Shown here piece by piece: positions 41,829-56,863 of a stretch of 64,000 nucleotides of DNA. This DNA is from Pseudomonadota bacterium (GTDB lineage Bacteria; Pseudomonadota; Gammaproteobacteria; Burkholderiales; Thiobacillaceae). The DNA is taken from contig JAKADC010000007.1 of NCBI GenBank assembly GCA_021820845.1, positions 101,300 to 165,299 of the forward strand, read 5' to 3'. The notes under the pieces are model-generated. The model saw only the letters and a program-made list of their open reading frames with translations. It was not told the origin of the DNA and searched no databases. The first letter of the stretch is position 1; the number at the start of each line of letters is the position of its first letter. Made by a program: the position numbers and the translations under genes.

Positions 41829-43283
41829 ATGGCGGTAACCACATATTCCGGTGCGGAGCAGTACAACTTCGAAGTCGTTAAGAAATTTGCCGTCATGTCG
41901 CTCGTATGGGCGGTCGTCGGCATGTTCGTGGGCGTGTATATCGCTTCCGAACTGGCTTGGCCCTTCTTGAATTTCGACAGCCCGTACATTTCGTTTGGGC
42001 GGTTTCGGCCCGTCCACACCACCTCGGTGATTTTCGGTTTCGGTGGCTCGGCCCTGTTCGCCACCTCCTATTACGTGGTTCAGCGCACCTGCCAGACCCG
42101 CCTGATTTCGGACGGCATGGCGAGCTTCACGTTCTGGGGCTGGATGGCGGTGATCGCACTCGCCGACGTCAGCTACATGCTCGGCTATACGCAGTCGCGT
42201 GAATACGCCGAGATGGAGTGGCCGATCGACATCCTGATCGAGGTCGTCTGGGTGACCTACCTGATCTTATTCGTCGGTACCATCATGCGCCGCAAGCAGC
42301 CGCACATCTACGTCGCGAACTGGTTCTACCTCGCCTTCATCCTGGCGACGGCGCTGCTGCACACGTTCAACAACCTGGCGGTCCCCATCAATCTGTTCTC
42401 GATGAAGTCCTACAGCCTTTTCTCGGGCGTGCAGGACGCGATGACGCAATGGTGGTATGGCCACAACGCGGTGGGCTTCTTCCTGACCGCCGCCTTCCTC
42501 GGCATGATGTACTACTTCGTGCCGAAGCAGGCCGGCCGCCCGATCTACTCCTATCGGCTGTCCATCGTCCACTTCTGGGCGCTGGCCTTCATGTACATGT
42601 GGGTGGGCGCCCACCACCTGCACTGGACCGCGCTGCCCGACTGGACCTCGTCGCTCGCCGCCGCGTTCTCGATCCTGCTGCTGATGCCTTCGTGGGGCGG
42701 CATGATCAACGGCATCATGACCCTGTCGGGCGCGTGGGACAAGCTGCGCACCGACCCGATCATGCGCTTCATGATCGTTGCGCTGTCGTTCTACGGCATG
42801 TCGACCTTCGAAGGTCCGATGATGTCACTGAAGGAAGTCAACGCGCTGTCGCACTACACCGACTGGACCGTGGGCCACGTGCACTCCGGCGCGCTGGGCT
42901 GGGTGGCGATGATCACCTTCGGTTCGCTGTATCACATGATCCCCAAGCTGTGGGCGACCAAGATGTATAGCCGCAAGCTGATCGAATGGCATTTCTGGCT
43001 CGCGACCATCGGCATCGTGCTGTACATCGTCGCGATGTGGATCTCCGGCATCACGCAGGGTCTGATGTGGCGCGCGTTCGACGAGTTCGGCAATCTGCAG
43101 TACTCGTTCGTCGAAACCGTCGCGGCCATGCATCCCTTCTACGCGATGCGCGCGATTGGCGGCATGTTCTTCCTGACCGGCATGTTGACGATGGCCTTCA
43201 ATATCTTCATGACCATCCGCCAGGGCAAACGTGAAAACGCTGCCCTCGAAGGCAAGCTTGCAAGCAAGCTCGCTCATGCATGA
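41829..43283 (+). CDS. ccoN: cbb3-type oxidase subunit I
   Basis: [27 protein letters not shown]. Confidence 0.98.
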
Positions 43284-43307
43284 TTCGGAAAGAGATAGAA
43301 ATAAACC

Positions 43308-44054
43308 ATGAACCTGAATTTCAAACACGAATGGGTTGAAACCAACATCGGCCTGATGGTGGTGTTGACGATGCTGGCGATCAGCATCGGCGGCCTGGTG
43401 GAAATCGCCCCGCTGTTCTTCATCGACAACACGATCGAAAAGGTCGACGGCGTGCGGCCCTACACGCCGCTCGAGCAGCGCGGCCGCGACATCTATCAGC
43501 GCGAGGGCTGCTACCTTTGTCACTCGCAGATGATCCGCCCGTTCCGCGACGAGAAGCTGCGCTATGGCCACTATTCGCTGGCGGCGGAATCGCAATACGA
43601 CCATCCGTTCCAGTGGGGTTCCAAGCGTACCGGCCCGGATCTGGCGCGCGTGGGCGGCAAGTACTCGAACGAATGGCATGTCCAGCACCTGACCGCGCCG
43701 CGTTCGATGGTTCCCGAGTCGGTGATGCCGAACTACCCGTGGCTGAGCAAGACGCCGCTCGATATCTCCGATATCACCGACCGCATGAAGGCCCTGCGTG
43801 AGGTCGGCGTCCCGTATTCGCTGACCGACGCCGAATACAAGGCGAACGTGGCCAAATTCGGTGAGACCGTCGCCAAGCAGCTGCACATTCCCAATGCGCA
43901 GCAGAGCATCGTCGAGCAGGCCAACTTCGGCAACTACGACGGCGATCGGTCCGGTATTTCCGAAATGGACGCATTGGTAGCCTATCTGCAGGTATTGGGC
44001 ACCATGGTCGATTTCAACAAATACAAAGACGACACGTTCGTCAACGACCGTTGA
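43308..44054 (+). CDS. ccoO: cbb3-type oxidase subunit II
   Basis: [23 protein letters not shown]. Confidence 0.97.
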
Positions 44055-44078
44055 TCCAAAGCGATCCAGGGGTTTGAA

Positions 44079-44264
44079 ATGGAAATCTTGATGTGGCTCT
44101 CCAAGCCCGAGAACGCCAAACCCTTGGGACTGGTCATTTTTTTCGTCACCTTCATCGGCATCGTGATCTACGCCTACGGTAGCAAGCAGCGCAGCGAGCG
44201 ACTCGAGTCTCGCGGCAACATACCGTTCCTGGACGATGAGGAAGACACGAAGGACAAGCAATGA
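44079..44264 (+). CDS. ccoQ: cbb3-type oxidase subunit CcoQ
   Basis: Single TM, IPFLDDE; lies between ccoO and ccoP. Confidence 0.9.
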   Translation: MEILMWLSKPENAKPLGLVIFFVTFIGIVIYAYGSKQRSERLESRGNIPFLDDEEDTKDKQ

Positions 44265-45181
44265 GCGAGCAAAAACTACAATCTCAAACTGTGCAAACCA
44301 CCGGTCATGCCTGGGACGGGGACCTTCAGGAATACAACAATCCGCTGCCCGTCTGGTGGGTCTACACGTTCTACATCACGGTGCTCTTCGCGATCGTGTA
44401 CTGGGTCATCTACCCGTCCTGGCCGTTCGGCAAGACGTGGATCGGCGGGGTTTCGAACGTGACCTACGTCAACAGCGACGGCCAAACCAAGACGCACGCC
44501 TGGAACACGCGCGCGCTGCTCATGGCGGACCTCAACAAGGCGGATGCGGCGCAAAAGCCCTACTTCGACAAGGTTGCCGCCATGTCCTACGCGCAGATCG
44601 CCAAGGATCCCGAGATGAGCGGCTTCATCCTGTCGGCGGGCAAGGCGCTCTTCGCCGACAACTGCGCGCCGTGCCACCAGGCGGGCGGCCAGGGCAAGCT
44701 CGGGTTCTTTCCCAACCTGACCGATGACGACTGGCTGTACGGCGGCACGTTCGACAAGATCCATCAAACCATCACCGGCGGTCGCCACGGTTACATGCCG
44801 ACTTTCAGCGAAGTGCTGTCCGGCGACCAGATCGACCAGCTTGCCAATTACGTGGCGAGCCTCTCGGGCATCGGCCACGACGCAGCCAAGGCGGCGGCCG
44901 GCAATACGCTCTTCCACAGCGAGACCGCGGCCTGTTACTACTGCCACGGCGTCGACGCCAAGGGACGCAAGGAGATCGGCTCGGCGAACCTGACCGACGA
45001 CATCTGGCTCTGGGCCAACGTGCCCGGCGCAGCGACCGCGGAAGGGAAGGTTGCAGCGATCCACAACGTGATCGCGAGCGGCCTCAACAAGGGTGTGATG
45101 CCGGCGTGGGGCGGCCGCCTTTCACCCGAACAAATCAAGGTTCTCACGGTCTATGTTCATGAATTGGGCGGTGGCCAGTAA
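44261..45181 (+). CDS. ccoP: cbb3-type oxidase subunit III
   Basis: TTGHAWDG, EYNNPLP, heme motifs CAPCH and CYYCH. Confidence 0.96.
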   Translation: MSEQKLQSQTVQTTGHAWDGDLQEYNNPLPVWWVYTFYITVLFAIVYWVIYPSWPFGKTWIGGVSNVTYVNSDGQTKTHAWNTRALLMADLNKADAAQKPYFDKVAAMSYAQIAKDPEMSGFILSAGKALFADNCAPCHQAGGQGKLGFFPNLTDDDWLYGGTFDKIHQTITGGRHGYMPTFSEVLSGDQIDQLANYVASLSGIGHDAAKAAAGNTLFHSETAACYYCHGVDAKGRKEIGSANLTDDIWLWANVPGAATAEGKVAAIHNVIASGLNKGVMPAWGGRLSPEQIKVLTVYVHELGGGQ

Positions 45182-45202
45182 AGGCGCGGAATGAGATGAG
45201 CG

Positions 45203-45226
45203 AAGCCCCCGTTTCCGGGGGCTTTT
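45203..45226 (+). terminator. Intrinsic terminator after ccoNOQP
   Basis: AAGCCCCCG-TTTC-CGGGGGCTT-TT. Confidence 0.8.
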
Positions 45227-45254
45227 GCTTCCCGCGGATTCAACCGGTCGAATC

Positions 45255-46694
45255 ATGCAAACAGGCTTAGAAGAGCAGCTCGGTCTTTACCAGAAACGCA
45301 TTCCCATCTTTACGCGGTCGGTGAAGGGGCGATTCCGCCGTTTCAAGACCTCCGTTCTGGCGCTCGCGTATGCGATTTATTTCCTGCTGCCGTGGCTGCC
45401 GTGGTCGCGCGTCGATGCACCGGCGCAGGCCGTGCTGTTCGACCTGCCCGGCCGGCGGTTCCTGATTTTCGGCCTGACGGTCTATCCGCAGGACGTCATC
45501 TGGCTGGCGCTCTTGCTCTTCATCGCAGCGATCCTGCTCTTCTTCGTCACAGGCCTGGTGGGGCGCGCGTTCTGCGGCTACTTCTGCTTCCAGACGCTGT
45601 GGACCGATTTCTACATCTGGATCGAAACCGTGATCCAGGGCGAACGTCCGGCCCGTATCCGCCTTTACCGGCAGCCGTGGAACCGCGAGAAGGTGGTCAA
45701 GGTCGGCGGCACCCATGCGCTGTGGGTGCTGGCCTCGTTCTGGACCGGCATGACGTTCGTCGCCTACTTCACCTACGCACCGCAGCTCGTGGTGGATTTC
45801 TTCACGGGCCAGGCGGCGTCCGCCGCCTACATCACCGTCACCGTGCTGACCATCTCGACCTATGCCGCGGCGGGCCTGATGCGCGAGCAGATCTGCACCT
45901 ACGTGTGCCCCTACGGCCGTTTCCAGAGCGTGATGTACGAACCGGAAACGCTGGCGGTGCACTACGACGCCAGGCGCGGCGAGGCGACGCACGGACGCGC
46001 GAGCGCACGCGCCGGCCAGCGCACGCTTGCCGAGCGCCATGACAAGGGCGTCGGCGATTGCGTCGACTGCGGCCTGTGCGTCCAGGTGTGTCCGACCGGC
46101 ATCGACATCCGCGACGGGCTTCAGTACAAATGCATTTCCTGCGGGCTTTGCATCGACGCCTGCAACAGCATCATGGACTCGTTCAATTTTCCGCGCGGCC
46201 TGATCCGCTACGACTCGGAGAAAAACCTGGCCGCAGACGTCCCCGCGCCGCCCAGGGTCGAATGGAAGCGTCTCAAAACGATCGGGTACGGGGTTGCACT
46301 GATCCTCATGGGCGGCTATCTCGCCTACAGCATCGGCAGCCGCGGCAGCTACGACCGGGCCGTCAATCAGATCCGGCAACCGTTGTACGTGGTGCTCTCG
46401 AACGGCGACATCCGCAATCGCTATCAGATCCGCATCACGAACAAGGCGCCGCAGGATCAGACCTACGTCATCAGCGCGAAAGGGATACCCGCGAGCGCGC
46501 TCGATCTCGGCAATTTCCGGGAAATAACGATCCGGCCCGGCCACAGCGGGCTCGTCCAGGCCAGCGTGCGCCTTGATCCCGAATTGGCAGAGCACACCCG
46601 GCGCTTCGAGCTGGTCATCACCCCGCGGGGCAAGCCCGGCGAAGCGCGTTCCGAAACCGTCCGTTTCGACAGTCCGAAAGAGCTGCATGGATAA
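45255..46694 (+). CDS. ccoG: Cytochrome oxidase accessory Fe-S protein CcoG/FixG
   Basis: CGYFCFQT, CTYVCPYGRFQ, CVDCGLCVQVCPTG, CISCGLCIDAC. Confidence 0.96.
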   Translation: MQTGLEEQLGLYQKRIPIFTRSVKGRFRRFKTSVLALAYAIYFLLPWLPWSRVDAPAQAVLFDLPGRRFLIFGLTVYPQDVIWLALLLFIAAILLFFVTGLVGRAFCGYFCFQTLWTDFYIWIETVIQGERPARIRLYRQPWNREKVVKVGGTHALWVLASFWTGMTFVAYFTYAPQLVVDFFTGQAASAAYITVTVLTISTYAAAGLMREQICTYVCPYGRFQSVMYEPETLAVHYDARRGEATHGRASARAGQRTLAERHDKGVGDCVDCGLCVQVCPTGIDIRDGLQYKCISCGLCIDACNSIMDSFNFPRGLIRYDSEKNLAADVPAPPRVEWKRLKTIGYGVALILMGGYLAYSIGSRGSYDRAVNQIRQPLYVVLSNGDIRNRYQIRITNKAPQDQTYVISAKGIPASALDLGNFREITIRPGHSGLVQASVRLDPELAEHTRRFELVITPRGKPGEARSETVRFDSPKELHG

Positions 46695-47463
46695 CACCGT
46701 CATCACCCTGTTCGGCGGCCTGGCCGGCGTGCTCGTCCTGTATGCCATCGGGAGCCTCGTGCGCCTGCCCGCCATCCTGCGCGCCGTCCTGGCAGGACTG
46801 ATCCCGCTCTTCGCGTACTTCGTGTATATCGTCGGGCACTGGCCGGGGCTGGACGTGGTGGCGATCCACATCTCGGTTTTCTTCGCGACCGCGCTGGTGC
46901 TGTTTGCCCTGACCCTGTTCCGGCGGCGTGGCGGACGCATGCACTGGGTGCCGAAGCTGCTCATGTCCTTCTTCGTCGGACTGGCCGTGCTGATGGGGGC
47001 GTTTCTTTACATCGCGAACAACGGCCTGCCCGAGCCGATCGGCCGGGCGTGGCTGGGCAGCAAGACCGGAGGCCCGGTCTACAGTGGATTTTCCGGCGTG
47101 GTTCCCCACAACCAGGAAGCGGCCACCGCGATTTCCTCGGAGCTCTCGAAACGCCACCGCGAGGCCGCGCTCGGCTGGAATATCGACGTCAGCGGACTCG
47201 ACGGAAGCGGCCTGGACCGCAACGTGCGGGTCCGCGTCAGGAACCAGACCGGCCTCCCGGTCGACGGGGTCGAGGCCGAACTCCGGCTGGAGCGTCCCGG
47301 CGCAACGCTGCCCGAACTCACGGTGCCGTTGGTCGAGCTGGACGGCGGCGTCTACGGCGGGGCGGTACACATTCCGGCGAGCGGGCGCTGGCTGGCCGAA
47401 GTCCGTCTTTCGCGTGAGCGCCAGCTCCGCTACCAGCACACGCGGGAGCTCGAAATACCGTGA
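46687..47463 (+). CDS. ccoH: FixH/CcoH family protein with extra N-terminal TM segments
   Basis: Position after ccoG; C-terminal Ig-like part (RPGAT...GVY.G...SGRW). Confidence 0.7.
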   Translation: MDNTVITLFGGLAGVLVLYAIGSLVRLPAILRAVLAGLIPLFAYFVYIVGHWPGLDVVAIHISVFFATALVLFALTLFRRRGGRMHWVPKLLMSFFVGLAVLMGAFLYIANNGLPEPIGRAWLGSKTGGPVYSGFSGVVPHNQEAATAISSELSKRHREAALGWNIDVSGLDGSGLDRNVRVRVRNQTGLPVDGVEAELRLERPGATLPELTVPLVELDGGVYGGAVHIPASGRWLAEVRLSRERQLRYQHTRELEIP

Positions 47464-47657
47464 GCGGGATCCTGGGCTTCCTGTTCCTGTTGTCGGGGGT
47501 GTTCGTGCTGTTTATCGTCCTGGGGGTGTTCTGGTCGATCAAAAGCGGGCAGTTCGACGACCTGGAAGGCCCGGCCGAACGCATCCTGATGGACGACGAC
47601 GACCCGCTGCTGCCGACCCAACGGCCGAAGGAAAAAGACGACCGCCCGCGCAAATAG
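47460..47657 (+). CDS. ccoS: cbb3 oxidase maturation protein CcoS
   Basis: FWSIKSGQFDDLEGPAERILMDDD. Confidence 0.95.
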   Translation: MSGILGFLFLLSGVFVLFIVLGVFWSIKSGQFDDLEGPAERILMDDDDPLLPTQRPKEKDDRPRK

Positions 47658-47732
47658 CCGAACCGGCACCGGACCGTACCCAAACGGACGCAAGTACATT
47701 AAAATTCATCAAACTTTTATGGAGTACGCACA

Positions 47733-47840
47733 ATGAAGCAGCTTCTGACCTTTCAAGGTTTCCCCATGATCGTGGTGGTCGGATTGATCGTTTGGGCGTG
47801 GATCAGCCTTTTTTCGGTCATCATCGGCTCTTTCTTCTGA
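47733..47840 (+). CDS. Unannotated 35-aa single-TM small protein
   Basis: MKQLLTFQGFPMIVVVGLIVWAWISLFSVIIGSFF*; GGAG upstream at 47721-24, followed by a terminator. Confidence 0.6.
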   Translation: MKQLLTFQGFPMIVVVGLIVWAWISLFSVIIGSFF

Positions 47841-47857
47841 CCGTTCCCTTTTCGATT

Positions 47858-47890
47858 AAAAACGCCCCGCAGTCATCGCGGGGCGTTTTT
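47858..47890. terminator. Bidirectional intrinsic terminator
   Basis: AAAAACGCCCCGC-AGTCATC-GCGGGGCGTTTTT. Confidence 0.88.
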
Positions 47891-47993
47891 ACGTCCGTCT
47901 TCCGCTCGGCGGTCCATGGCGAGCCAACACCGCCTGTTCTTACCTGTCCGCCTCTGACTGAGACAAGGCTTGGCTCGAGACTTGTGCCTCCGC

Positions 47994-50900
47994 TCACGCC
48001 GCGCGGCGCGGCTTCCGCACCCGCAGTCCCCACCACGCCAAAAGGGGGAGCAGGGTAAGGGTAAACAGCGTGGCAGTGATGACGCCTCCGACAATCACCA
48101 CGGCGAAGGGACGCTGCGTCTCCGAGCCGATGGCATGGGAGAGCGCGGCCGGCAACAGGCCGAGCCCGGCCATCAGCGCAGTCATGAGAATGGGGCGCAG
48201 GCGGGAGACCGCTCCCTCGGTGACGGCACGCAGCAGGCTGGCGCCGTTGTCCACCAATCGCACCACTTCCTCGAGAAGGATCACGCCGTTCTGCACGGAG
48301 ATCCCCGCGACGGCAATGAAGCCGACCGCGGCCGAGATGGAGAGATGCAGCCCGGCCAGACCGAGGGCAAAGAACCCGCCCGTAATGTTGAAGGGCAGCA
48401 TGGCGAGGATCAGGCCGGCCAGTCGCACGGAGCGGAAGGCCCAGAAGAGCAGGGCAAAGATGCCCAGCAGCGAGGCTGGGACGATGACCGCCAGGCGTTT
48501 CATGGCGCGCTGCTGGTTCTCGAATTGCCCGCCCCAGACGATGCGGTAGCCGGGAGGAAGTTGTACCGCCTTGACCACCTTGGCCATGGCCTCGGTGACG
48601 AAGCTGCCCTGGTCGCGGCCCAGCAGGTTGGCCTTGACCGCGACGTTGCGCCCTCCTGCTTCGCGGGAGATCCGCGAAGCGCCTTCGCGCACTTCAACCG
48701 TGGCGACATCGGCGATCCGTACGGTGCCTGCATTGTTGGGCAGCGCGATGGGAACCGCGCCCACGTCTTCCACCGAATTGCGATACGCCTTCGCGAAGCG
48801 GAGCGTCAGGTCGAAGCGGCGTTCGCCTTCGTAGAAAGCGCCGGCGGTGCTGCCGCCCAGCGCGGTCTGCACCGCGTTGGCGAGGTCGGCCATCGACAAG
48901 CCGAGGCGTGCCAGTTTGACGCGATCGGGCAATACCACCACCTCGGGCTGGCCCCCGGGCAGGATGGCCGCGACGTCGCGGCTGCCCTGGACGCCGCGCA
49001 GGATCGAGGCAATCTGTTCGGCCTTATCCTGCAGGACATCGAGATCGGGACCGAAGACTTTCACGGCGATCTCACCCTTCACGCCGGACAAGGCTTCCTC
49101 GACGTTGTCCTGGATGACCTGGGAGAAATTGGTGGGCAGGCCGGGCAGGACCGCGAGCTTCTTCTCCATGTCGGCCACCAGCGCATCCTTGGTGGGGAAG
49201 CGCCACGTGTCCCGTGGCTGCAGGTCGGCAAGGATCTCCATGTTGTTCGGGCCCTTGGGGTCGGTGCCGTCATCGGGGCGCCCCACTTGCGAGACGACCA
49301 TCTTCACTTCCGGATAGCTGCGCAGGGTCGTGCGCACCACCCGTTCCACGTCCTTGGTGTGCTCGAGCGACGAGCCGGGCGGCAAGGTGATGGTCAGCCA
49401 CAGGTTGCCTTCGTCCAGTTGCGGAAGGAATTCGCTGCCGAGCAACGGCACCAGGGAAAATGCCAAGACGACGATCGCGCCGGCGATGCCGAATGCCATG
49501 CGCGGATGGCGCCGAATCCGGCTGAGCAGGCGGCGGTAGCCATGCTGCAGGCGAACCAGCCAGTCGATGTGTTTTTCCGCAAGATCTCGCCAGTTGAGCA
49601 CGACCGACAACAGGGCGGGAACCAGGGTGAGCGTGAGCAGCACGGCGCCCAGCAAGGAAAAGGACAGGATCAGGGCCACCGGGGAGAAGATCCGTCCCTC
49701 CACCCGCTGGAAGGTGAAGATGGGCAGAAAGGCAAGGATGATGATGGCCTTGGAGAACAGGATGGGTTTGGCCAGATCTGCGGTGACCCAGCGCAAGGCT
49801 TCGAAGCGGCGCGTGATCGGCGATTCGGCGCTGGCATCCACATGATGCAGCGCGAGTCGGACCATGAGGGCTTCCACCAGCACGACGGCGCTGTCGATGA
49901 TGATGCCGAAGTCCACGGTGCCGAGCGAGATGAGGTTCGCCGGCACCCCCTTCAGGTCCATGAGCGTGAAGGCGAAGAGCAGCGTCAGCGGAATGATCGC
50001 CGCCACGACCAGGGCCGCCCGCCATTCGCGCAGGAAAATCACCAGTACCGACACGACCAGAAGGGCACCGGTCAGCAGGTTCTCGCTCACCGTATGGACG
50101 GTATGGTGAACCAGGTCGGTGCGCTGATAGATGGGTTTGATGCTCACGCCCTTGGGCAGCTGGCCGTGGTTGAGCTCGTCGACCCGCCCCAGCAGGTCGG
50201 CCACCACCTTCGACGGATCGCCGCCCTTGGTCATGAGGACGATGCCCTCGACAACCGAATCCTGATCGTCGTAGGCGACGATCCCGGAAAGCGGACGGTC
50301 GCCGACTTCGATCGCTGCGATGTCGCCGACCGTCACGGTTTTGCCGTCCCGGGCGCTGACGACGGCGGCGCGGATGTCCTCGATCCGGGAGAACAGACCG
50401 ATTGCGCGAACGACCAGGGTTTCGTCGCCCCGCGTCATCAGGCCGCCTGAAGCGTTCTGGTTGCCATTGGCGAGCGCCTGCGAAACCTGGTCCAGGCTGA
50501 CGCCATAGCGGGCCATGGCGTCGGGGTTGAGCCGTACCTGATATTCCTTGATCGCGCCGCCGAAACTGTTGACATCGGCCACGCCGGACACCCGGCGCAG
50601 GGCAGGGCGCACCACCCAGTCCTGCAGGGCGCGCACCTCGCGGGCCGGCATGCCGGGGGGCGCTTGCAGCACGTAGCGATAGATCTCGCCGACCGCGGTC
50701 GACAGCGGGGCCAGTTGCGGCTGGATACCGGGCGGCAGGGTGACGTTCTGCAGCTTTTCCAGCACCTGGTTGCGCGCGAAGTAGTCGTTGGTTCCATCGT
50801 CGAAGGTCAGGGTCACGACCGACAGACCGGTGATCGACACCGAGCGCACCTGGGTTGCCCGCGGTACGCCGCTCATTTCCCTTTCGATGGGGATGCTGAG

Positions 50901-51092
50901 GGTGCGCTCGACGTCCTCCGGCGACTGTCCGGGATACTGGGTCACCACCTGCACCTGCACGTCCTGGACGTCGGGGAAGGCCTCCACCGGCAGGTTCTGC
51001 AGGGCGCGTACGCCGATCACCGCGAGGGCTACCGCCATCACCAGGATGAAGAGCCGCTGGCGGATGACGAAAATCGAGAGGTGGCCGAACAC
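47994..51092 (-). CDS. CusA/CzcA-family heavy-metal RND permease
   Basis: EAFPDV, DFGIIIDSAVVLVE, GSEFLPQLDEG, RLRPILMTA, GSETQRPFA. Confidence 0.92.
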   Translation of the reverse strand: MFGHLSIFVIRQRLFILVMAVALAVIGVRALQNLPVEAFPDVQDVQVQVVTQYPGQSPEDVERTLSIPIEREMSGVPRATQVRSVSITGLSVVTLTFDDGTNDYFARNQVLEKLQNVTLPPGIQPQLAPLSTAVGEIYRYVLQAPPGMPAREVRALQDWVVRPALRRVSGVADVNSFGGAIKEYQVRLNPDAMARYGVSLDQVSQALANGNQNASGGLMTRGDETLVVRAIGLFSRIEDIRAAVVSARDGKTVTVGDIAAIEVGDRPLSGIVAYDDQDSVVEGIVLMTKGGDPSKVVADLLGRVDELNHGQLPKGVSIKPIYQRTDLVHHTVHTVSENLLTGALLVVSVLVIFLREWRAALVVAAIIPLTLLFAFTLMDLKGVPANLISLGTVDFGIIIDSAVVLVEALMVRLALHHVDASAESPITRRFEALRWVTADLAKPILFSKAIIILAFLPIFTFQRVEGRIFSPVALILSFSLLGAVLLTLTLVPALLSVVLNWRDLAEKHIDWLVRLQHGYRRLLSRIRRHPRMAFGIAGAIVVLAFSLVPLLGSEFLPQLDEGNLWLTITLPPGSSLEHTKDVERVVRTTLRSYPEVKMVVSQVGRPDDGTDPKGPNNMEILADLQPRDTWRFPTKDALVADMEKKLAVLPGLPTNFSQVIQDNVEEALSGVKGEIAVKVFGPDLDVLQDKAEQIASILRGVQGSRDVAAILPGGQPEVVVLPDRVKLARLGLSMADLANAVQTALGGSTAGAFYEGERRFDLTLRFAKAYRNSVEDVGAVPIALPNNAGTVRIADVATVEVREGASRISREAGGRNVAVKANLLGRDQGSFVTEAMAKVVKAVQLPPGYRIVWGGQFENQQRAMKRLAVIVPASLLGIFALLFWAFRSVRLAGLILAMLPFNITGGFFALGLAGLHLSISAAVGFIAVAGISVQNGVILLEEVVRLVDNGASLLRAVTEGAVSRLRPILMTALMAGLGLLPAALSHAIGSETQRPFAVVIVGGVITATLFTLTLLPLLAWWGLRVRKPRRAA

Positions 51093-51093
51093 C

Positions 51094-52284
51094 TTATTCT
51101 CCCTGCGCCAGTTCGGACGCGAGCAGCAGCGCGCCCCGCACCACGACCTTGTCGCCGGGCTTGAGGCCGGAGTCGGGCGTCAGGTAGGCAAATTCGGCAT
51201 CCTGGCGGGCGACGCTCACGCGACGGCGCTCGAATGTGCGTGGGCCGAGCTGGACGAACAGGCGAGTCGTCAGGCCGTCCGTCAGCAAAGCGCCGACGGG
51301 CACGCGGAGGACCGTGGCGGCCTTGGGATCACTGATGGTGGCGCGGGCGAACATTTCCGGCTTGAGCCGGCCGTCGCCGTTGTCGACCAGTGCCCGTACC
51401 GGAATGCGCCGGGTGGTCGGGTCGACCATGGCGCCCACCCGTTCGATGCGCGCGGAAAATTCCTCGCCCGGGAAAGCCTCGACGCTGAAATTCACTGCCG
51501 CCCCTGGCTTGGCCAGGGCGGCGGCCTGTTCCGGCAGATCGATATTGAGCCAGAGGCGGCGCAAGTCGGACAGGATGAACAAGGGCGTCGCCGCATCGGG
51601 CCTTACCTCCGTGCCGGGATTGGCCTGGCGGTCGACGACGACGCCGCCGAGCGGCGCGCGCAGGACCAGGCGCTGGCCTTCGATGCGGCTGCCCGGGGGG
51701 GCGAGATTGGCAAGCCGCAAGCGGGCACGATCCGCCTCCGCGTCGGCGGCGCGAGCGTCGGCTTGCGCGGCTTCCAGATCGCGGCGCGCCAGCGCTTCGC
51801 CCCCGAACAGGGTCTGCGCGCGCGCCAGGGCCTTTTTCTTCAGGGTGGCGTCGGCTTGTGCCTTGCGCAGGTCGGCTACGGCCTGGCCGAAATCCGGCGC
51901 ATCGAGGATGGCAAGGGGCGTGCCGGAGACGACGGCATCGCCGGGATCCGCTTTCAGCGCAAGGATGCGTCCCGCAAGCGGCGGAAAGATCCGCGCCGTC
52001 CGGTCTTCGGCCAGGGCCAGACGGGCGTTCATCGGATCGCTGGCGGGCAGCGGCGCGAGGCCGGCCGCTTCGAGTTTAAGAAAAGCCAACTGCGAAGCAT
52101 CCTGCGGCAGGACCACCTGGTTGGCGGGCGCCTTGGGCGTGTCCTTCTGCTGCGGGGAGGGCGGCGCGGCGTGTTCGGCGCGCCAGGCGGCGACCCCACC
52201 GATCGCGAGGAGGGTGGCGAGGACAAGCGGGGCGACGCGCCTGGTGCGGGCGCGCGTGCGCCGGCCGGAAGAAGATCGGGTCAT
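51094..52284 (-). CDS. RND periplasmic adaptor (MFP, CzcB-like)
   Basis: Lipoyl-like repeats, RAPLGG, VDPTTR, LKPEMFA. Confidence 0.92.
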   Translation of the reverse strand: MTRSSSGRRTRARTRRVAPLVLATLLAIGGVAAWRAEHAAPPSPQQKDTPKAPANQVVLPQDASQLAFLKLEAAGLAPLPASDPMNARLALAEDRTARIFPPLAGRILALKADPGDAVVSGTPLAILDAPDFGQAVADLRKAQADATLKKKALARAQTLFGGEALARRDLEAAQADARAADAEADRARLRLANLAPPGSRIEGQRLVLRAPLGGVVVDRQANPGTEVRPDAATPLFILSDLRRLWLNIDLPEQAAALAKPGAAVNFSVEAFPGEEFSARIERVGAMVDPTTRRIPVRALVDNGDGRLKPEMFARATISDPKAATVLRVPVGALLTDGLTTRLFVQLGPRTFERRRVSVARQDAEFAYLTPDSGLKPGDKVVVRGALLLASELAQGE

Positions 52285-53531
52285 GGCAATTCCTGGAGAT
52301 TCGTTGCGGCGGCCCAGGCGGCACGGGCCTTGGCCGCGTCGTCGAGCGCATTGACGGTGTCGATTTCGACGGCGTAGAGGCTGCGCCGGGCATCGATGAC
52401 ATCGAGGGTCGAGGCGCCGCCCTGGCTGAAGGCGAACTGGACGGCGGTATTGGCCTTGCGCGCTGCCGGCAGCGCTTCGTCGCGCAGGCGGCTCGCGCGC
52501 TCGCTCAGGCGCTCGGCCTCGAAGGTGGACTGGCTGAAATCGGCGGCGGCCGTGGCCTTGACGCGTTCGAGTTCATCCTGCGCGGAATCGCGCGCGATGA
52601 AGGCCTGGCGGATTTCGCCGCGGAAGTCGTAGCCGGTGAACAGGGGAACGCTGACGCCGACGCCGACCAGGTTGCTGCCGGGATACTGGTTGTTGCGCTC
52701 GAACTGGGCGCCGACGGTGACATCGCGCACCTGCTGGGATTTGGCCAGATCGATGGCTTTCCCCGCCGCAGCCAGCCGCTGGCGGGCGGCGATGACATCC
52801 GGACGCTTGTCCAGATCGGGTGGCGTGGATGGCAAGGGGCCGAGCGAGGGCCAGGAATCGGCGGTTGCGAGCTGCGCGGCGTCGGCTTCCATGGCCAGCA
52901 ACTGGGCGAGGGCGAGCCGCGCGCGCTGGCGGTCGATCTCGGCCTGGCTGGCGTCGCTGTCGGCACGCAAGGTGTCGGCGCGGATGCGCTCGACGTCGGA
53001 GGGCGCGAGGTCGCCGGCCTTCAGACGCAACTCGGTCTTGCTCAGCAGCTCGTGCGCCAGGTGGGCCGATTCGATGCTCAGGCGGGCGCGGTCCTCGGCT
53101 GCCTTGAGGTCGAAGTAGGCCTGACGGGCCAGCATGCGCTGCTGGCGCAGGCTGTCGGATTCGTCAGAGCGGCTGGCCTGGAGCAGGGCATCCGCCACGC
53201 CAAGGCGCAGTTCCCGCTTGTTGCCGCGCTCGAGCGGCTGGTCGATGCGCAGGGCCGTATCGAGAGACCCGTTGTCGCCGGGAGACTTGGCGTTGATTCC
53301 GCTGGTATTCAGCGACACCGTCGGATTGGGCCGACCGGAAGCGATCGTGACGGACGCCTCGGCAGCCATCGCGGCGCGGCGGGACGCGGTGAGGGTGCGG
53401 TTGTGTTCCACAAGCAGTTGCTCGACGTCGGCAAGACGCAGCCGGCCGAGGTTTGCGGGTTCGGCTGCTGCCGCCGGACCGGTCAGGCAGACGGCCAGAA
53501 GGATGTACGTGAGGAAGGAGGGCGTTCGCAT
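52281..53531 (-). CDS. TolC/CzcC-family outer membrane factor
   Basis: DKRPDVIAA, GVSVPLF, repeated OEP halves. Confidence 0.9.
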   Translation of the reverse strand: MRTPSFLTYILLAVCLTGPAAAAEPANLGRLRLADVEQLLVEHNRTLTASRRAAMAAEASVTIASGRPNPTVSLNTSGINAKSPGDNGSLDTALRIDQPLERGNKRELRLGVADALLQASRSDESDSLRQQRMLARQAYFDLKAAEDRARLSIESAHLAHELLSKTELRLKAGDLAPSDVERIRADTLRADSDASQAEIDRQRARLALAQLLAMEADAAQLATADSWPSLGPLPSTPPDLDKRPDVIAARQRLAAAGKAIDLAKSQQVRDVTVGAQFERNNQYPGSNLVGVGVSVPLFTGYDFRGEIRQAFIARDSAQDELERVKATAAADFSQSTFEAERLSERASRLRDEALPAARKANTAVQFAFSQGGASTLDVIDARRSLYAVEIDTVNALDDAAKARAAWAAATNLQELP

Positions 53532-53695
53532 GGGCAAGCACGATAGGGCATGCCACCTGTCGCGACCCTGACAGGGAAGGCGCGCGTTTACCGTGCAGGC
53601 GGAAAGGCGTTGGGGCACGCTGGGATGCGTGAACCCGAGGCCGTTTGGCGCATGCCGCAGGAATGCTTCAGGTGGCCCGCGCGGACGGGTGCGAA

Positions 53696-55078
53696 TCAGG
53701 CACGGGGCAGGAAGCTGACCCGGATGCGCGTACCGCCTCCGGCGCCGGAGGCAGCGATATGGATGGTGGCGTTGTGCCGGTCCGCCACTTCCTTGACGAT
53801 GGCGAGGCCGAGCCCGCTGCCCGAACCGGGGGATCCCGCCGCCCGGTAAAAACGGTCGAAGATGCGCTGGTGCTCGGCTTCCGGGATGCCAGGTCCATTG
53901 TCCTCGACTTCGATGAAGGGACGGTCGTCCTCGCCGATGCCGCTACGAGCAGTGACCCGCCCGCCGGCAGGCGTGTACTTCAGGGCATTGTCGATCAGGT
54001 TCGCCAGCAATTCCCGTAATAGCCATTCGGCACCGTCGATTACCCCTGGCTCCGGTTCGAAGCCGAGATCGATGTCGCGGGCGAGTGCCCGGTCGTACCA
54101 GGTGGATGCGTTTTCCTGCAGCAGGTGGGCGAGGTTTACCGGGCGCCGCTCGTGGGCGATGTCGGCTTCCGGCCCCGAGCGTGCGAGGGCCAGGAACTGG
54201 TGGACAAGATGGCCGAGGCGCTGGGTGGCATCGCGCAGGTTCACCACCCGGTGACGATATTCCCGGGGAAGTTCCGCCGCCGTCAGTTCCAGTTGGGTCT
54301 GCAAGGCCGCGAGCGGAGTCTTGAGCTGATGGGCAGCATTCGCAAGGAAGGACTGTTGCGCCATCGCCGCCGCCTGCAGGTCGTCGATCAGCGTCGACAT
54401 GGCGTTGACCAGGGGCTCGATCTCGCCCGGCACGTCCCCCGTGGGCAACGGGCTGAGATCGTGCGGGGAGCGGCGGCCGATTTCCTCGCTGAGCTCCGCG
54501 AGAGGTGCCACGCCCCTGCGTACGCCGATGTACACCAGACCGAGGGTGGCGAGGATGAGAACGACATTGGGGGCGACCATCGCGGCCAGAATCTTTGAGC
54601 CGGCTCGTTTGCGCTTCTTGGTGGTTTCGGCGACGACGACGGTGACTGGACCGCTGGATGTTTCCAGCCGATAGCTTGCCTTGCGTATGGCCTTGCCTCC
54701 CTGGCTGTCATCCGACAGGGCCGGGGGCTGGCCGGGCATTGCCGGCCCGGGCTTGAGATTGGCGTCGCCTGCCAGCAGCTCGCCGGTCGGCCCGCGCACT
54801 GCGAGAAATTCCTGATCCCTGCCATTGCTTCGCAGGACCGCCTCGGCGGCGGGCGGAAGGTCAACGGCCACGGCGTGTCGCTGGACATGAACCCGGCCAG
54901 CCAGCGCGACCACATCGTCGGCGAGGGCATGGTCGTAGGCATCGTTGGCCGGGTCGAACGCGATGTGATAATCGGCGGCGAGGCTGACGACGAGCAGCGC
55001 TGCCAGCGGCGCCAGCAGAAAGACGAGCAGCCGCCTGCGCAGGGTCTGTCGCGATCGCTCAGGCCGGTGAGAGTTCAT
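53696..55078 (-). CDS. Sensor histidine kinase (TctE/QseC-like)
   Basis: Two TMs, H-box AAHQLKTPL, NLIDNALKY, DNGPGI, GSGLGLAIV. Confidence 0.93.
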   Translation of the reverse strand: MNSHRPERSRQTLRRRLLVFLLAPLAALLVVSLAADYHIAFDPANDAYDHALADDVVALAGRVHVQRHAVAVDLPPAAEAVLRSNGRDQEFLAVRGPTGELLAGDANLKPGPAMPGQPPALSDDSQGGKAIRKASYRLETSSGPVTVVVAETTKKRKRAGSKILAAMVAPNVVLILATLGLVYIGVRRGVAPLAELSEEIGRRSPHDLSPLPTGDVPGEIEPLVNAMSTLIDDLQAAAMAQQSFLANAAHQLKTPLAALQTQLELTAAELPREYRHRVVNLRDATQRLGHLVHQFLALARSGPEADIAHERRPVNLAHLLQENASTWYDRALARDIDLGFEPEPGVIDGAEWLLRELLANLIDNALKYTPAGGRVTARSGIGEDDRPFIEVEDNGPGIPEAEHQRIFDRFYRAAGSPGSGSGLGLAIVKEVADRHNATIHIAASGAGGGTRIRVSFLPRA

Positions 55079-55733
55079 CGAGGCGGTAGCCGATGCCGCG
55101 GATCGTGCGGATTTCCACGCCGCATCCCTGCAGTTTGCTGCGCAGACGCGATATGTAGATTTCGACGGCATTGGTGGTCAGTTCGTTGTCCCACTCGCTC
55201 AGACTTTCCACCATCTTCTGCTTGGCGACGACATTCGGCGTGGCGAGCATGAGCTGTTGCAGTATTTCCCACTCGCGGCCGGTAAGCTCGAGTGGCATGC
55301 CGTTCGAACTGGCGGTTCTGCGTGCCAGGTCGAGGCGAACCGAGCCTGCGCTCAGTTCGGAAGTGGCGGCCGAGCGGCTGCGGCGGATCAGCGCGCGCAG
55401 CCGGGCCAGCAGTTCGGGCAGGTGGAAGGGCTTGACCATGTAATCGTCGGCGCCGAGGTCGAGTCCGTTCACCCGGTTATCCAGCCCGTCGTGGGCCGTA
55501 AGAATGAGGACGGGCACCTGGATGCCTCGGCGGCGCAAGCGGCGGATCAGTTCATGGCCATTCATGCGTGGCAGGCCGATGTCGACGATCGCCAGATCGT
55601 AATGGGTGAGTTCGAGTGCGGATGCGGCCGGCTCGGCCGCGGCCGCGTGGTCCACCGCGAATCCTGCTCTTTCCAGGCCTTCGCGGATACCCTCGGCCAC
55701 CATCGGGTCGTCTTCAACGAGCAGGATGCGCAT
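55059..55733 (-). CDS. OmpR-family response regulator (TctD/QseB-like)
   Basis: MRILLVEDD, DIGLP, GADDYMVKPF, TIRGIGY. Confidence 0.95.
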   Translation of the reverse strand: MRILLVEDDPMVAEGIREGLERAGFAVDHAAAAEPAASALELTHYDLAIVDIGLPRMNGHELIRRLRRRGIQVPVLILTAHDGLDNRVNGLDLGADDYMVKPFHLPELLARLRALIRRSRSAATSELSAGSVRLDLARRTASSNGMPLELTGREWEILQQLMLATPNVVAKQKMVESLSEWDNELTTNAVEIYISRLRSKLQGCGVEIRTIRGIGYRLDELSPA

Positions 55734-55925
55734 GGCGGCCGTTGGCTTGATACCACCGAACGGCAAGCGAAACGTCGCTCCCCTCGAAGGCAAAGATATC
55801 GTGCATTAGGGCTCCGTTAATGACGAAGCCACCTTAGCGGACGGGTGCTTACACTCGCCTGACAGCAGTCGGCTCGCACTAGGGCGCCGGCAGGCTGTGT
55901 ACTCGGCGCCGACGCATCAAAATAA

Positions 55926-55990: not shown

Positions 55991-56836
55991 TCACTCCGGA
56001 ATCGCGCTCCGCATTTTTTGCAGTGCCCGCGCCTCGATCTGGCGGATACGTTCGGCGGAGACACCGTATTTCGCCGCCAATTCATGCAATGTCGCCGCTT
56101 CGCCTTCGGTCAGCCAGCGCGCCTGGATGATGTGGCGGCTGCGCGCATCGAGATTTTCCAGGGCGAGGGTCAGGCCGCTATGGCGCAGGCGTTCGGTCTG
56201 CTCGCGCTCGAGCAGTTGCGCCGGGTTTTCGTCCGGGCTCGCCATGTAGGCGAGGGGGCTGAAGCTTTCCTCGCCGTCCTCCACGCTCGGATCGATCGAG
56301 ACGTCGTGCCCCGAGAGGCGCGTCTCCATTTCCAGCACGTCCTTGCGGCTCACGTTCAGCTCGCGCGCAACGGCGTCCGCTTCCTGCAGCGTCAGCGCGT
56401 TGAGCGACTGTTTCAGGCTGCGCAGATTGAAGAACAGCTTGCGCTGCGACTTGGTGGTCGCGACCTTGACCAGGCGCCAGTTCCGCAGGACGTATTCGTG
56501 GATCTCGGCGCGGACCCAGTGCAGCGCAAACGAAACCAGCCGCACGCCGCGGTCGGGGTCGAAACGCTTCACCGCCTTCATCAGGCCGACGTTGCCTTCC
56601 TGGATAAGGTCGGCGTGCGGCAACCCGTAGCCGAGGTAATGGCGCGCCACGCTCACCACCACGCGAAGATGCGATACCACCAGCTGCCGGGCAGCCTCGA
56701 CATCCTGTTTTTCGAGCCACGCCCGCGCGAATTGCTGCTCTTCCTCCATGCTGAGCATGGGATAGCGATTCACGGTCTGGATATAGCTCTCCAGGCTGTA
56801 TGCGGCAGGAATCGGTAAAGACATCGATTGGCTCAT
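55991..56836 (-). CDS. rpoH: RNA polymerase sigma-32 factor
   Basis: DLIQEGNVGLMKAV, RpoH box QRKLFFNLR, VSAERIRQIE. Confidence 0.96.
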   Translation of the reverse strand: MSQSMSLPIPAAYSLESYIQTVNRYPMLSMEEEQQFARAWLEKQDVEAARQLVVSHLRVVVSVARHYLGYGLPHADLIQEGNVGLMKAVKRFDPDRGVRLVSFALHWVRAEIHEYVLRNWRLVKVATTKSQRKLFFNLRSLKQSLNALTLQEADAVARELNVSRKDVLEMETRLSGHDVSIDPSVEDGEESFSPLAYMASPDENPAQLLEREQTERLRHSGLTLALENLDARSRHIIQARWLTEGEAATLHELAAKYGVSAERIRQIEARALQKMRSAIPE

Positions 56837-56863
56837 ATATGTAACTCCCTTCACCGCACAATT

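Follow-up and report, generated by a model that had tools for sequence, protein, structure and literature searches.

Gene organization at the cbb3 locus

The window, by which we mean the whole 64,000-nucleotide stretch of DNA analysed here, carries a cbb3 oxidase gene cluster (41829-47657) that includes ccoG, ccoH, and ccoS and is devoid of ccoI (Table 1). Two cbb3 operons are present in this genome. The second ccoNOQP-ccoG set, encoding a short CcoO, is located on contig C5, and the copper ATPase gene ccoI and a second ccoS are on contig C20. Throughout this study, ccoO was classified as the full-length type when the protein (about 245-285 aa) matched the entire FixO profile (positions 1-219), and as the short type when the match ran from position 1 to about position 180 only. 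The CcoH protein of the window is long: alignments with its homologues extend over about 256 residues, but the 150-position FixH profile covers only residues 177-284 of this ORF, and no family match was obtained for the N-terminal half.

Directly downstream of ccoS and on the same strand, we identified a gene of 35 codons, with the translation product MKQLLTFQGFPMIVVVGLIVWAWISLFSVIIGSFF. The original prediction made from this DNA had proposed a 35-aa ORF preceded by a GGAG sequence 8 nt before the ATG and by an A+T-rich upstream region, and each of these elements was found at the coordinates it had given. Within the genome, the peptide is encoded only at the full-length-CcoO operon, which is the one in the window. 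Its gene is followed by a hairpin and then by a block of about 8 kb (47994-55793) of RND-efflux and two-component genes, which separates it from the convergent rpoH gene for sigma-32.

Table 1. Positions of genes and signals around the peptide gene, in window coordinates
Feature	Position	Strand	Evidence or remark
ccoN	41829-43283	+	Pfam
ccoO, 248 aa, full-length FixO type	43308-44054	+	Pfam
ccoQ	44079-44264	+	Pfam
ccoP	44261-45181	+	Pfam
ccoG	45225-46694	+	Pfam
ccoH, inside ORF	46573-47463	+	Pfam; CcoH homologues align from ORF residue 41
ccoS (FixS family)	47460-47657	+	Pfam PF03597, 9.3e-18; TIGR00847, 4.7e-12
19-nt spacer unit TACCCAAACGGACGCAAGT	47677-47695	+	Located where other Thiobacillus have -35 TTGAGC in register
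-10-like hexamer TAAAAT	47700-47705	+	Conserved sigma-70-type -10; ends 27 nt before ATG
Shine-Dalgarno core GGAG	47721-47724	+	8 nt before ATG; conserved across Thiobacillus loci
Peptide gene, 35 codons	47733-47840	+	Frame and translation; ATG at 47733, TGA at 47838-47840
Predicted intrinsic terminator hairpin	47854-47895	.	A-tract on one side, T-tract on the other; dG -25.8 kcal/mol
RND pump	47994-51092	-	Next gene downstream of the peptide terminator
Membrane-fusion protein	51094-52284	-	In the ~8-kb block
Outer-membrane factor	52281-53618	-	In the ~8-kb block
Sensor kinase	53696-55171	-	In the ~8-kb block
Response regulator	55059-55793	-	In the ~8-kb block
rpoH (sigma-32)	55991-56854	-	Convergent with the peptide gene; TIGR02392, 400 bits (cut-off 323); Pfam

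Coding nature of the 35-codon frame

Conservation in related genomes had been suggested as a check on the ORF, and it bore the ORF out: by six-frame search, the peptide was found in 22 of 24 other Thiobacillus genomes, and the two genomes without a match are 59-67% complete. In all of 20 Thiobacillus loci compared, the frame was open and 35 codons long. Among the five alternative frames, two were interrupted by stop codons in every locus and two in some loci; one remained open throughout, but its codon-position pattern was wrong for a coding sequence. The peptide frame was likewise intact, again at 35 codons, in each of 80 further Thiobacillus loci, of which 79 start with ATG and one with GTG; the stop codon of the 79 loci with the ATG pattern was TGA in 69 and TAA in 10.

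The pattern of variation among the Thiobacillus loci was that of a coding sequence. The entropy at codon positions 1, 2, and 3 was 0.43, 0.13, and 0.85, respectively, dN/dS was about 0.12 by the method of Nei and Gojobori, and the divergence between loci begins right past the stop codon. It is near certain that the frame represents a genuine gene, evolving as coding sequence under strong purifying selection.

In a different reading frame, an uninterrupted stretch of 324 codons (47084-48058, plus strand) overlaps ccoH, ccoS, and the peptide gene alike; none of the 20 loci checked has a stop codon of this frame within the peptide gene. By its codon-position pattern, this long frame is a non-coding, G+C-rich shadow, one that could mislead gene callers.

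Predicted promoter, ribosome-binding site, and terminator

The Shine-Dalgarno core is not restricted to Thiobacillus, for it was detected in 46 of 56 unique homologues outside this genus, against 7.2 expected from shuffled sequences. Upstream of GGAG, the A+T-rich segment of the window (47696-47720) contains the -10-like hexamer TAAAAT, and at this site a -10 sequence matching at least five of the six positions was observed in 74 of 79 Thiobacillus loci (16.6 expected). When the upstream regions were aligned on TAnAAT, the sequence TTGAnn was found to sit exactly 17 nt further upstream. The full TTGAnn-17-TAnAAT promoter was present in 28 of 58 unique upstream regions from outside Thiobacillus, against 0.23 expected from shuffles, and the regions with the complete promoter include loci whose upstream gene is not ccoS. 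In Thiobacillus itself, 49 of 78 unique spacers carry the -35 sequence TTGAGC within the last codons of ccoS, together with the -10 past the ccoS stop. An FNR/Anr box, such as the one associated with ccoM, was considered and rejected, as the motif that recurs upstream has the make-up of a common -35/-10 promoter.

In the window, the peptide gene has no recognisable -35 and retains only the -10 TAAAAT; a promoter scan of the window gave no promoter-like site near the peptide gene on either strand. In the position of the -35 lies the 19-nt unit TACCCAAACGGACGCAAGT. This unit is lineage-specific: of 78 unique Thiobacillus spacers, about 29 have one or two copies of it in the interval from ccoS to the -10. 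A dispersed repeat was ruled out by its single occurrence in the genome. The unit could be the site for a regulator, or else a sign that this lineage depends on read-through from ccoS.

On the downstream side, the strong terminator that had been placed 17 nt after the stop codon was recovered as an extended hairpin (47854-47895) that begins about 17 nt after the TGA, with a folding energy of -25.8 kcal/mol and a z value of -4.5; none of 200 shuffled sequences was as stable. Its core (47858-47890) consists of AAAAACGCCCCGC-AGTCATC-GCGGGGCGTTTTT. A simple terminator scanner did not report this hairpin. By its predicted fold, it would terminate the peptide transcript, and because an A-tract and a T-tract flank it on the two sides, it probably works in both directions. 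Among Thiobacillus loci, the mean minimum free energy of the 70 nt downstream of the peptide gene was -43 kcal/mol, compared with -10.8 for the 70 nt upstream, indicating that the strong hairpin is placed after the peptide gene and not after ccoS.

Since a TTGAnn-17-TAnAAT promoter precedes the gene and the hairpin follows the peptide gene rather than ccoS, we infer for most lineages a compact transcription unit of its own, consisting of a sigma-70-type promoter, a short leader with the Shine-Dalgarno sequence, about 35 codons, and the terminator; from the putative promoter to the terminator, the unit measures about 190 nt. The peptide gene had first been read as closing the cbb3 cluster. It does lie at the end of the cbb3 biogenesis genes, but with a predicted promoter of its own in most lineages it is not simply the last cistron. 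With such a promoter, expression of the peptide need not follow that of the cco genes.

Distribution of the peptide family

The phmmer search against 1.84 billion representatives detected 13 relatives, several of which had previously been called as proteins of 33-35 aa. A profile search at the order level (GTDB Burkholderiales) identified the family in 54 of 401 genomes, representing 23 genera and about 11 families, and a class-level search with a broader profile identified it in 59 of 401 genomes of 46 genera, adding about 40 further gammaproteobacterial families. Within a sample of 401 genomes taken at the level of the phylum, no match was obtained outside the window's own family. The peptide is widespread in Gammaproteobacteria as delimited by GTDB, with Burkholderiales included. 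Besides Thiobacillus, the named members are the sulfur oxidisers Thiogranum longum, Thiohalophilus thiocyanatoxydans, Sulfuritortus calidifontis, and Sulfurirhabdus autotrophica. As far as can be judged from genome content, the peptide is confined to those sulfur oxidisers and related bacteria in which the cbb3 cluster is of one particular type.

The named members are all annotated as hypothetical or uncharacterised. The description of the peptide as unannotated had to be narrowed: the exact protein is deposited in public collections, with relatives entered as 'hypothetical protein' in NCBI, IMG, and UniProt, but it belongs to no curated family. No Pfam or NCBIfam family matched the peptide, nor did any Pfam family match the 32 homologues scanned. 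A profile search of all PDB chains with E values up to 10 gave no match to the peptide, no Rfam match to the peptide region reached the threshold, and a search of full-text literature found no description of the family. Natural fusions of the peptide were considered and discarded; the long frames around some homologues are other reading frames that run across ccoS.

Some genomes encode two or three paralogues of the peptide (loci L113, L116, L152, and L158; genomes G080, G330, and G366). The paralogous genes are arranged in tandem after ccoS or are unlinked, as in locus L136, in which the gene lies beside ANTAR and GGDEF-EAL genes.

Linkage to cbb3 genes and to rpoH

The usual arrangement of the locus is ccoNOQP-ccoGH(I)S-peptide. 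The gene immediately upstream, in the same orientation, was ccoS in 19 of 20 and 79 of 80 Thiobacillus loci, in 21 of 29 loci of the order-level set, and in 17 of 19 of the class-level set. Outside Thiobacillus, ccoI-ccoS-peptide was the commonest order, and in another genus the peptide directly follows ccoI, with ccoS elsewhere. In 32 of 52 order-level genomes, a copy of the peptide gene was found downstream of ccoO of the full-length type and in the same orientation, at a distance of 3.7 kb in clusters without ccoI and of 6.1-7.0 kb in those with ccoI. Several profile matches as weak as E ~1e-3 were also located at the expected distance downstream of ccoO.

Co-occurrence with the full-length type of CcoO was also observed at the level of genomes, where the two are paired nearly one for one. 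Among 51 order-level genomes with this type, 49 carried the peptide; of the remaining two, one carries a divergent copy immediately behind ccoS, and the contig of the other stops 61 nt past ccoS. Conversely, cbb3 was present in 57 of 58 peptide-bearing genomes of the class-level set, including all 50 of high quality, and the CcoO of nearly all peptide-bearing genomes in this set was of the full-length type. One genome with two full-length-CcoO clusters carries a separate copy of the peptide gene after each. Even those lineages in which the peptide is unlinked from cco genes keep a cbb3 of the full-length-CcoO type. In one genus, three genomes without the cbb3 cluster have rpoH and no peptide, and genomes of the same genus with the cluster show ccoI-ccoS-peptide facing rpoH. 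A single deletion of neighboring genes could account for the combined loss of peptide and cco cluster, and the co-occurrence as a whole may in part reflect shared ancestry of the lineages.

The rpoH gene is as constant a neighbor as ccoS. It follows the peptide gene convergently in 73 of 80 Thiobacillus loci, 26 of 29 order-level loci, and at least 12 of 19 class-level loci, and in most relatives ends about 70 nt past the peptide stop. The RND-efflux and two-component block that intervenes in the window looks like an insertion common to only about 6 of the 80 relatives. In two genera of the same family, including Sulfuritortus-type genomes, the peptide gene is flanked by moaA or hipA on one side and by rpoH on the other, and no cco gene is present within 8 kb of it.

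In more than 40 gammaproteobacterial families, the cco cluster is followed by the peptide gene and the latter by a convergent rpoH (loci L101-L167). Such stability is unusual for genes without a known shared function and deserves study.

Since rpoH is as constant a neighbor as ccoS, position alone is ambiguous between cbb3 and rpoH. Three observations favor cbb3: genomes of the one genus without the cluster keep rpoH in the absence of the peptide, genomes with an unlinked peptide retain the full-length-CcoO cluster, and none of the high-quality genomes with the peptide is without cbb3. From gene order and co-occurrence taken together, the peptide is likely to be tied to cbb3.

Predicted structure and orientation of the peptide

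Near its N-terminus, the peptide carries the short conserved motif T6-F7-Q8-x-x-P11-M12; behind it, one predicted transmembrane helix extends to the C-terminus. The peptide contains a single Lys and would escape tryptic detection. AlphaFold2 (66 sequences) predicted a single helix of residues 10-32 with a pLDDT of 93.7, in agreement with the one transmembrane helix originally proposed. In the alignment of 121 unique homologues, the near-invariant residues are P11, M12, V15, L18, W23, S25, S28, and V29. Positions 15, 18, 22, 25, 28/29, and 32 share one face of the helix that is rich in Ala, Ser, and Gly; this small-residue face is composed of V15, L18, A/S22, S25, S28/V29, and A/G32, with W23 adjoining. 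Helix faces rich in small residues are typical of tight helix-to-helix packing.

The C-terminus is predicted to end inside the bilayer without a tail, and the last six residues have a net charge of 0 in 114 of the 121 homologues. The N-terminus has a net charge of +1 in most members. Because of this charge, and because the C-terminus ends in the bilayer without a tail, the N-terminus is likely to be cytoplasmic, an assignment of low confidence. In the model, the motif T/S-F/K-Q/E-x-x-P-M would be placed at the surface of the membrane, probably its cytoplasmic face. The predicted N-in orientation would be opposite to the published topology of CcoQ and CcoS (PMC12648545) and to the orientation indicated for CcoM by its basic C-terminal tail (PMC4742706).

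Comparison with known small proteins of respiratory oxidases

The cbb3 oxidases support respiration at very low oxygen in many bacteria, and their assembly is incompletely understood. CcoQ, CcoS, CcoM, and the anchor of CcoH are small one-helix proteins, each important for assembly or stability. Other oxidases also have small subunits: CydX, CydH, and CioY are those of the cytochrome bd oxidases. The peptide resembles these three in its length of less than 50 aa, its one helix, and the location of its gene beside an oxidase operon, but they belong to another oxidase family, and no Pfam family, that of CydX included, matched the 32 members scanned.

A close parallel is provided by CcoM of Pseudomonas stutzeri (PstZoBell_05036 family), a protein of 36 aa that forms an additional helix in the crystal structure of cbb3, its place in the enzyme being shown experimentally (PMC4742706). 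CcoM has an N-terminal helix and a basic C-terminal tail; the ccoM gene is distant from the cco genes, and reports of it are almost confined to Pseudomonas (PMC4742706). The two proteins are alike in their similar size, single transmembrane helix, tie to cbb3 (a likely one for the peptide), restriction to particular lineages, own promoter (a predicted one for the peptide), and annotation as hypothetical before study; stabilisation of the complex is proposed, by analogy, for the peptide too. They differ in that the helix of CcoM is N-terminal and followed by the basic tail, whereas the peptide begins with a polar motif and its helix runs to the C-terminus. In addition, the peptide gene is usually found after ccoS and occurs in many families of Gammaproteobacteria, and the place of the peptide in the enzyme is a proposed one. 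Homology to CcoM, in which M17, F20, and F24 are conserved, was rejected: the comparison of the CcoM sequence with the peptide profile by hhalign gave a probability of 0.2% with one aligned column, and no PDB chain matched.

Both CcoQ, which stabilises cbb3, and CcoS, which aids cofactor insertion, have cytoplasmic C-terminal tails (PMC12648545). As small single-pass membrane proteins encoded in cco clusters, CcoQ/FixQ (PF05545) and CcoS/FixS (PF03597) are similar to the peptide, but they differ by those tails, which the peptide lacks. Homology was rejected for CcoQ (PF05545; hhalign against CcoQ of the window, 0.7%; no Pfam match) as well as for CcoS (PF03597 and TIGR00847; hhalign against CcoS of the window, 0.6%; no Pfam or NCBIfam match). 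Genes for CcoQ and for CcoS are both present in the window, so that the peptide is an additional protein. Extra single helices on the cbb3 oxidase have firm precedents: besides CcoM in P. stutzeri (PMC4742706), CcoH and cytochrome cy provide them in R. capsulatus (10.1101/2020.06.27.175620).

The peptide shares the general features of small accessory proteins of oxidases, namely 35 residues with one predicted helix, and a gene that lies beside oxidase genes and co-occurs with them. On this basis, it is best filed as a new family among the small one-helix partners of respiratory oxidases.

Discussion

Taken together, gene order and co-occurrence, from which a role with cbb3 is inferred here, make the peptide a good candidate for a small partner of this oxidase, either a subunit or an assembly helper. 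The explanation that we prefer, and regard as reasonably probable, is that the gene encodes a genuine one-helix peptide of 35 residues that acts as a partner of the full-length-CcoO cbb3 system. The peptide would pack through its small-residue face against a membrane protein of this system: CcoN if it acts in the mature oxidase, and CcoS or CcoH if it acts while the oxidase is being assembled. In doing so, it might lend stability to the complex or to an intermediate of its assembly, a function that CcoM and CcoQ have in other bacteria. The near-consensus promoter of its own would fit subunit-like amounts more than those of a catalytic helper. A more specific proposal, which we put forward only tentatively, is that the peptide is a stoichiometric subunit of the full-length-CcoO cbb3 oxidases of sulfur-oxidising and related Gammaproteobacteria, produced from its own strong promoter and bound to CcoN via the small-residue face.

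The strongest challenge to a partnership with cbb3 comes from the constancy of rpoH. The peptide might be a real small membrane protein that has no role in cbb3 and is kept in an old, slowly rearranging block between ccoS and rpoH, where it might serve, for instance, in membrane stress or in the control of sigma-32. The counts of convergent rpoH given above (73/80, 26/29, and at least 12/19), the loci with moaA or hipA, the peptide, and rpoH but no cco gene within 8 kb, and a predicted promoter by which co-expression with cco genes is not required are all in line with such a protein. However, rpoH is present in relatives that have no peptide, while every high-quality genome with the peptide has cbb3; the number of peptide copies tracks that of cco clusters in one genome; and the window and six other Thiobacillus loci keep ccoS adjacent to the peptide even though rpoH is not adjacent. 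We therefore consider a role apart from cbb3 rather unlikely.

Two further explanations concern the nature of the unit itself. In its size, strong hydrophobicity, and compact promoter-to-terminator organization, the gene generally resembles those for hydrophobic toxins of type I toxin-antitoxin systems, and the product could be such a toxin or another membrane-depolarising peptide. With a good Shine-Dalgarno sequence, a short leader, and a near-consensus promoter, however, a toxin would be lethal; moreover, the gene is usually single-copy, has kept its chromosomal position in more than 50 families, and evolves under purifying selection. On the opposite strand there was no conserved frame, the promoter scan found no promoter-like site near the gene on either strand, and no Rfam family matched the region. 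We regard a toxin as highly improbable. The length of the unit, about 190 nt, would also suit a small non-coding RNA in which the open frame is incidental. Against an RNA stand the distribution of variation, highest at third and lowest at second codon positions, the preservation of the peptide sequence across lineages in which the DNA has diverged, the conservation of start codon, stop codon, and Shine-Dalgarno sequence, and the lack of an Rfam match at threshold; we give this explanation hardly any weight. A partner of the full-length-CcoO cbb3 system is then the reading that we retain. Of the original prediction as a whole, the conserved single-helix peptide gene linked to cbb3 stands, its part as a subunit or assembly factor is a candidate one, and its description as closing the cluster has been qualified.

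A short frame labelled "hypothetical" in some records and outside all curated families has thus turned out to be a widespread gene. The peptide family it encodes, uncharacterised and without a Pfam or NCBIfam model, accompanies a single type of cbb3 cluster in dozens of families, and offers specialists a concrete target that is easily deleted and easily tagged. If the peptide were indeed a stoichiometric subunit, a much larger group of bacteria would have its counterpart of CcoM, and the cco gene set would gain a ninth member.
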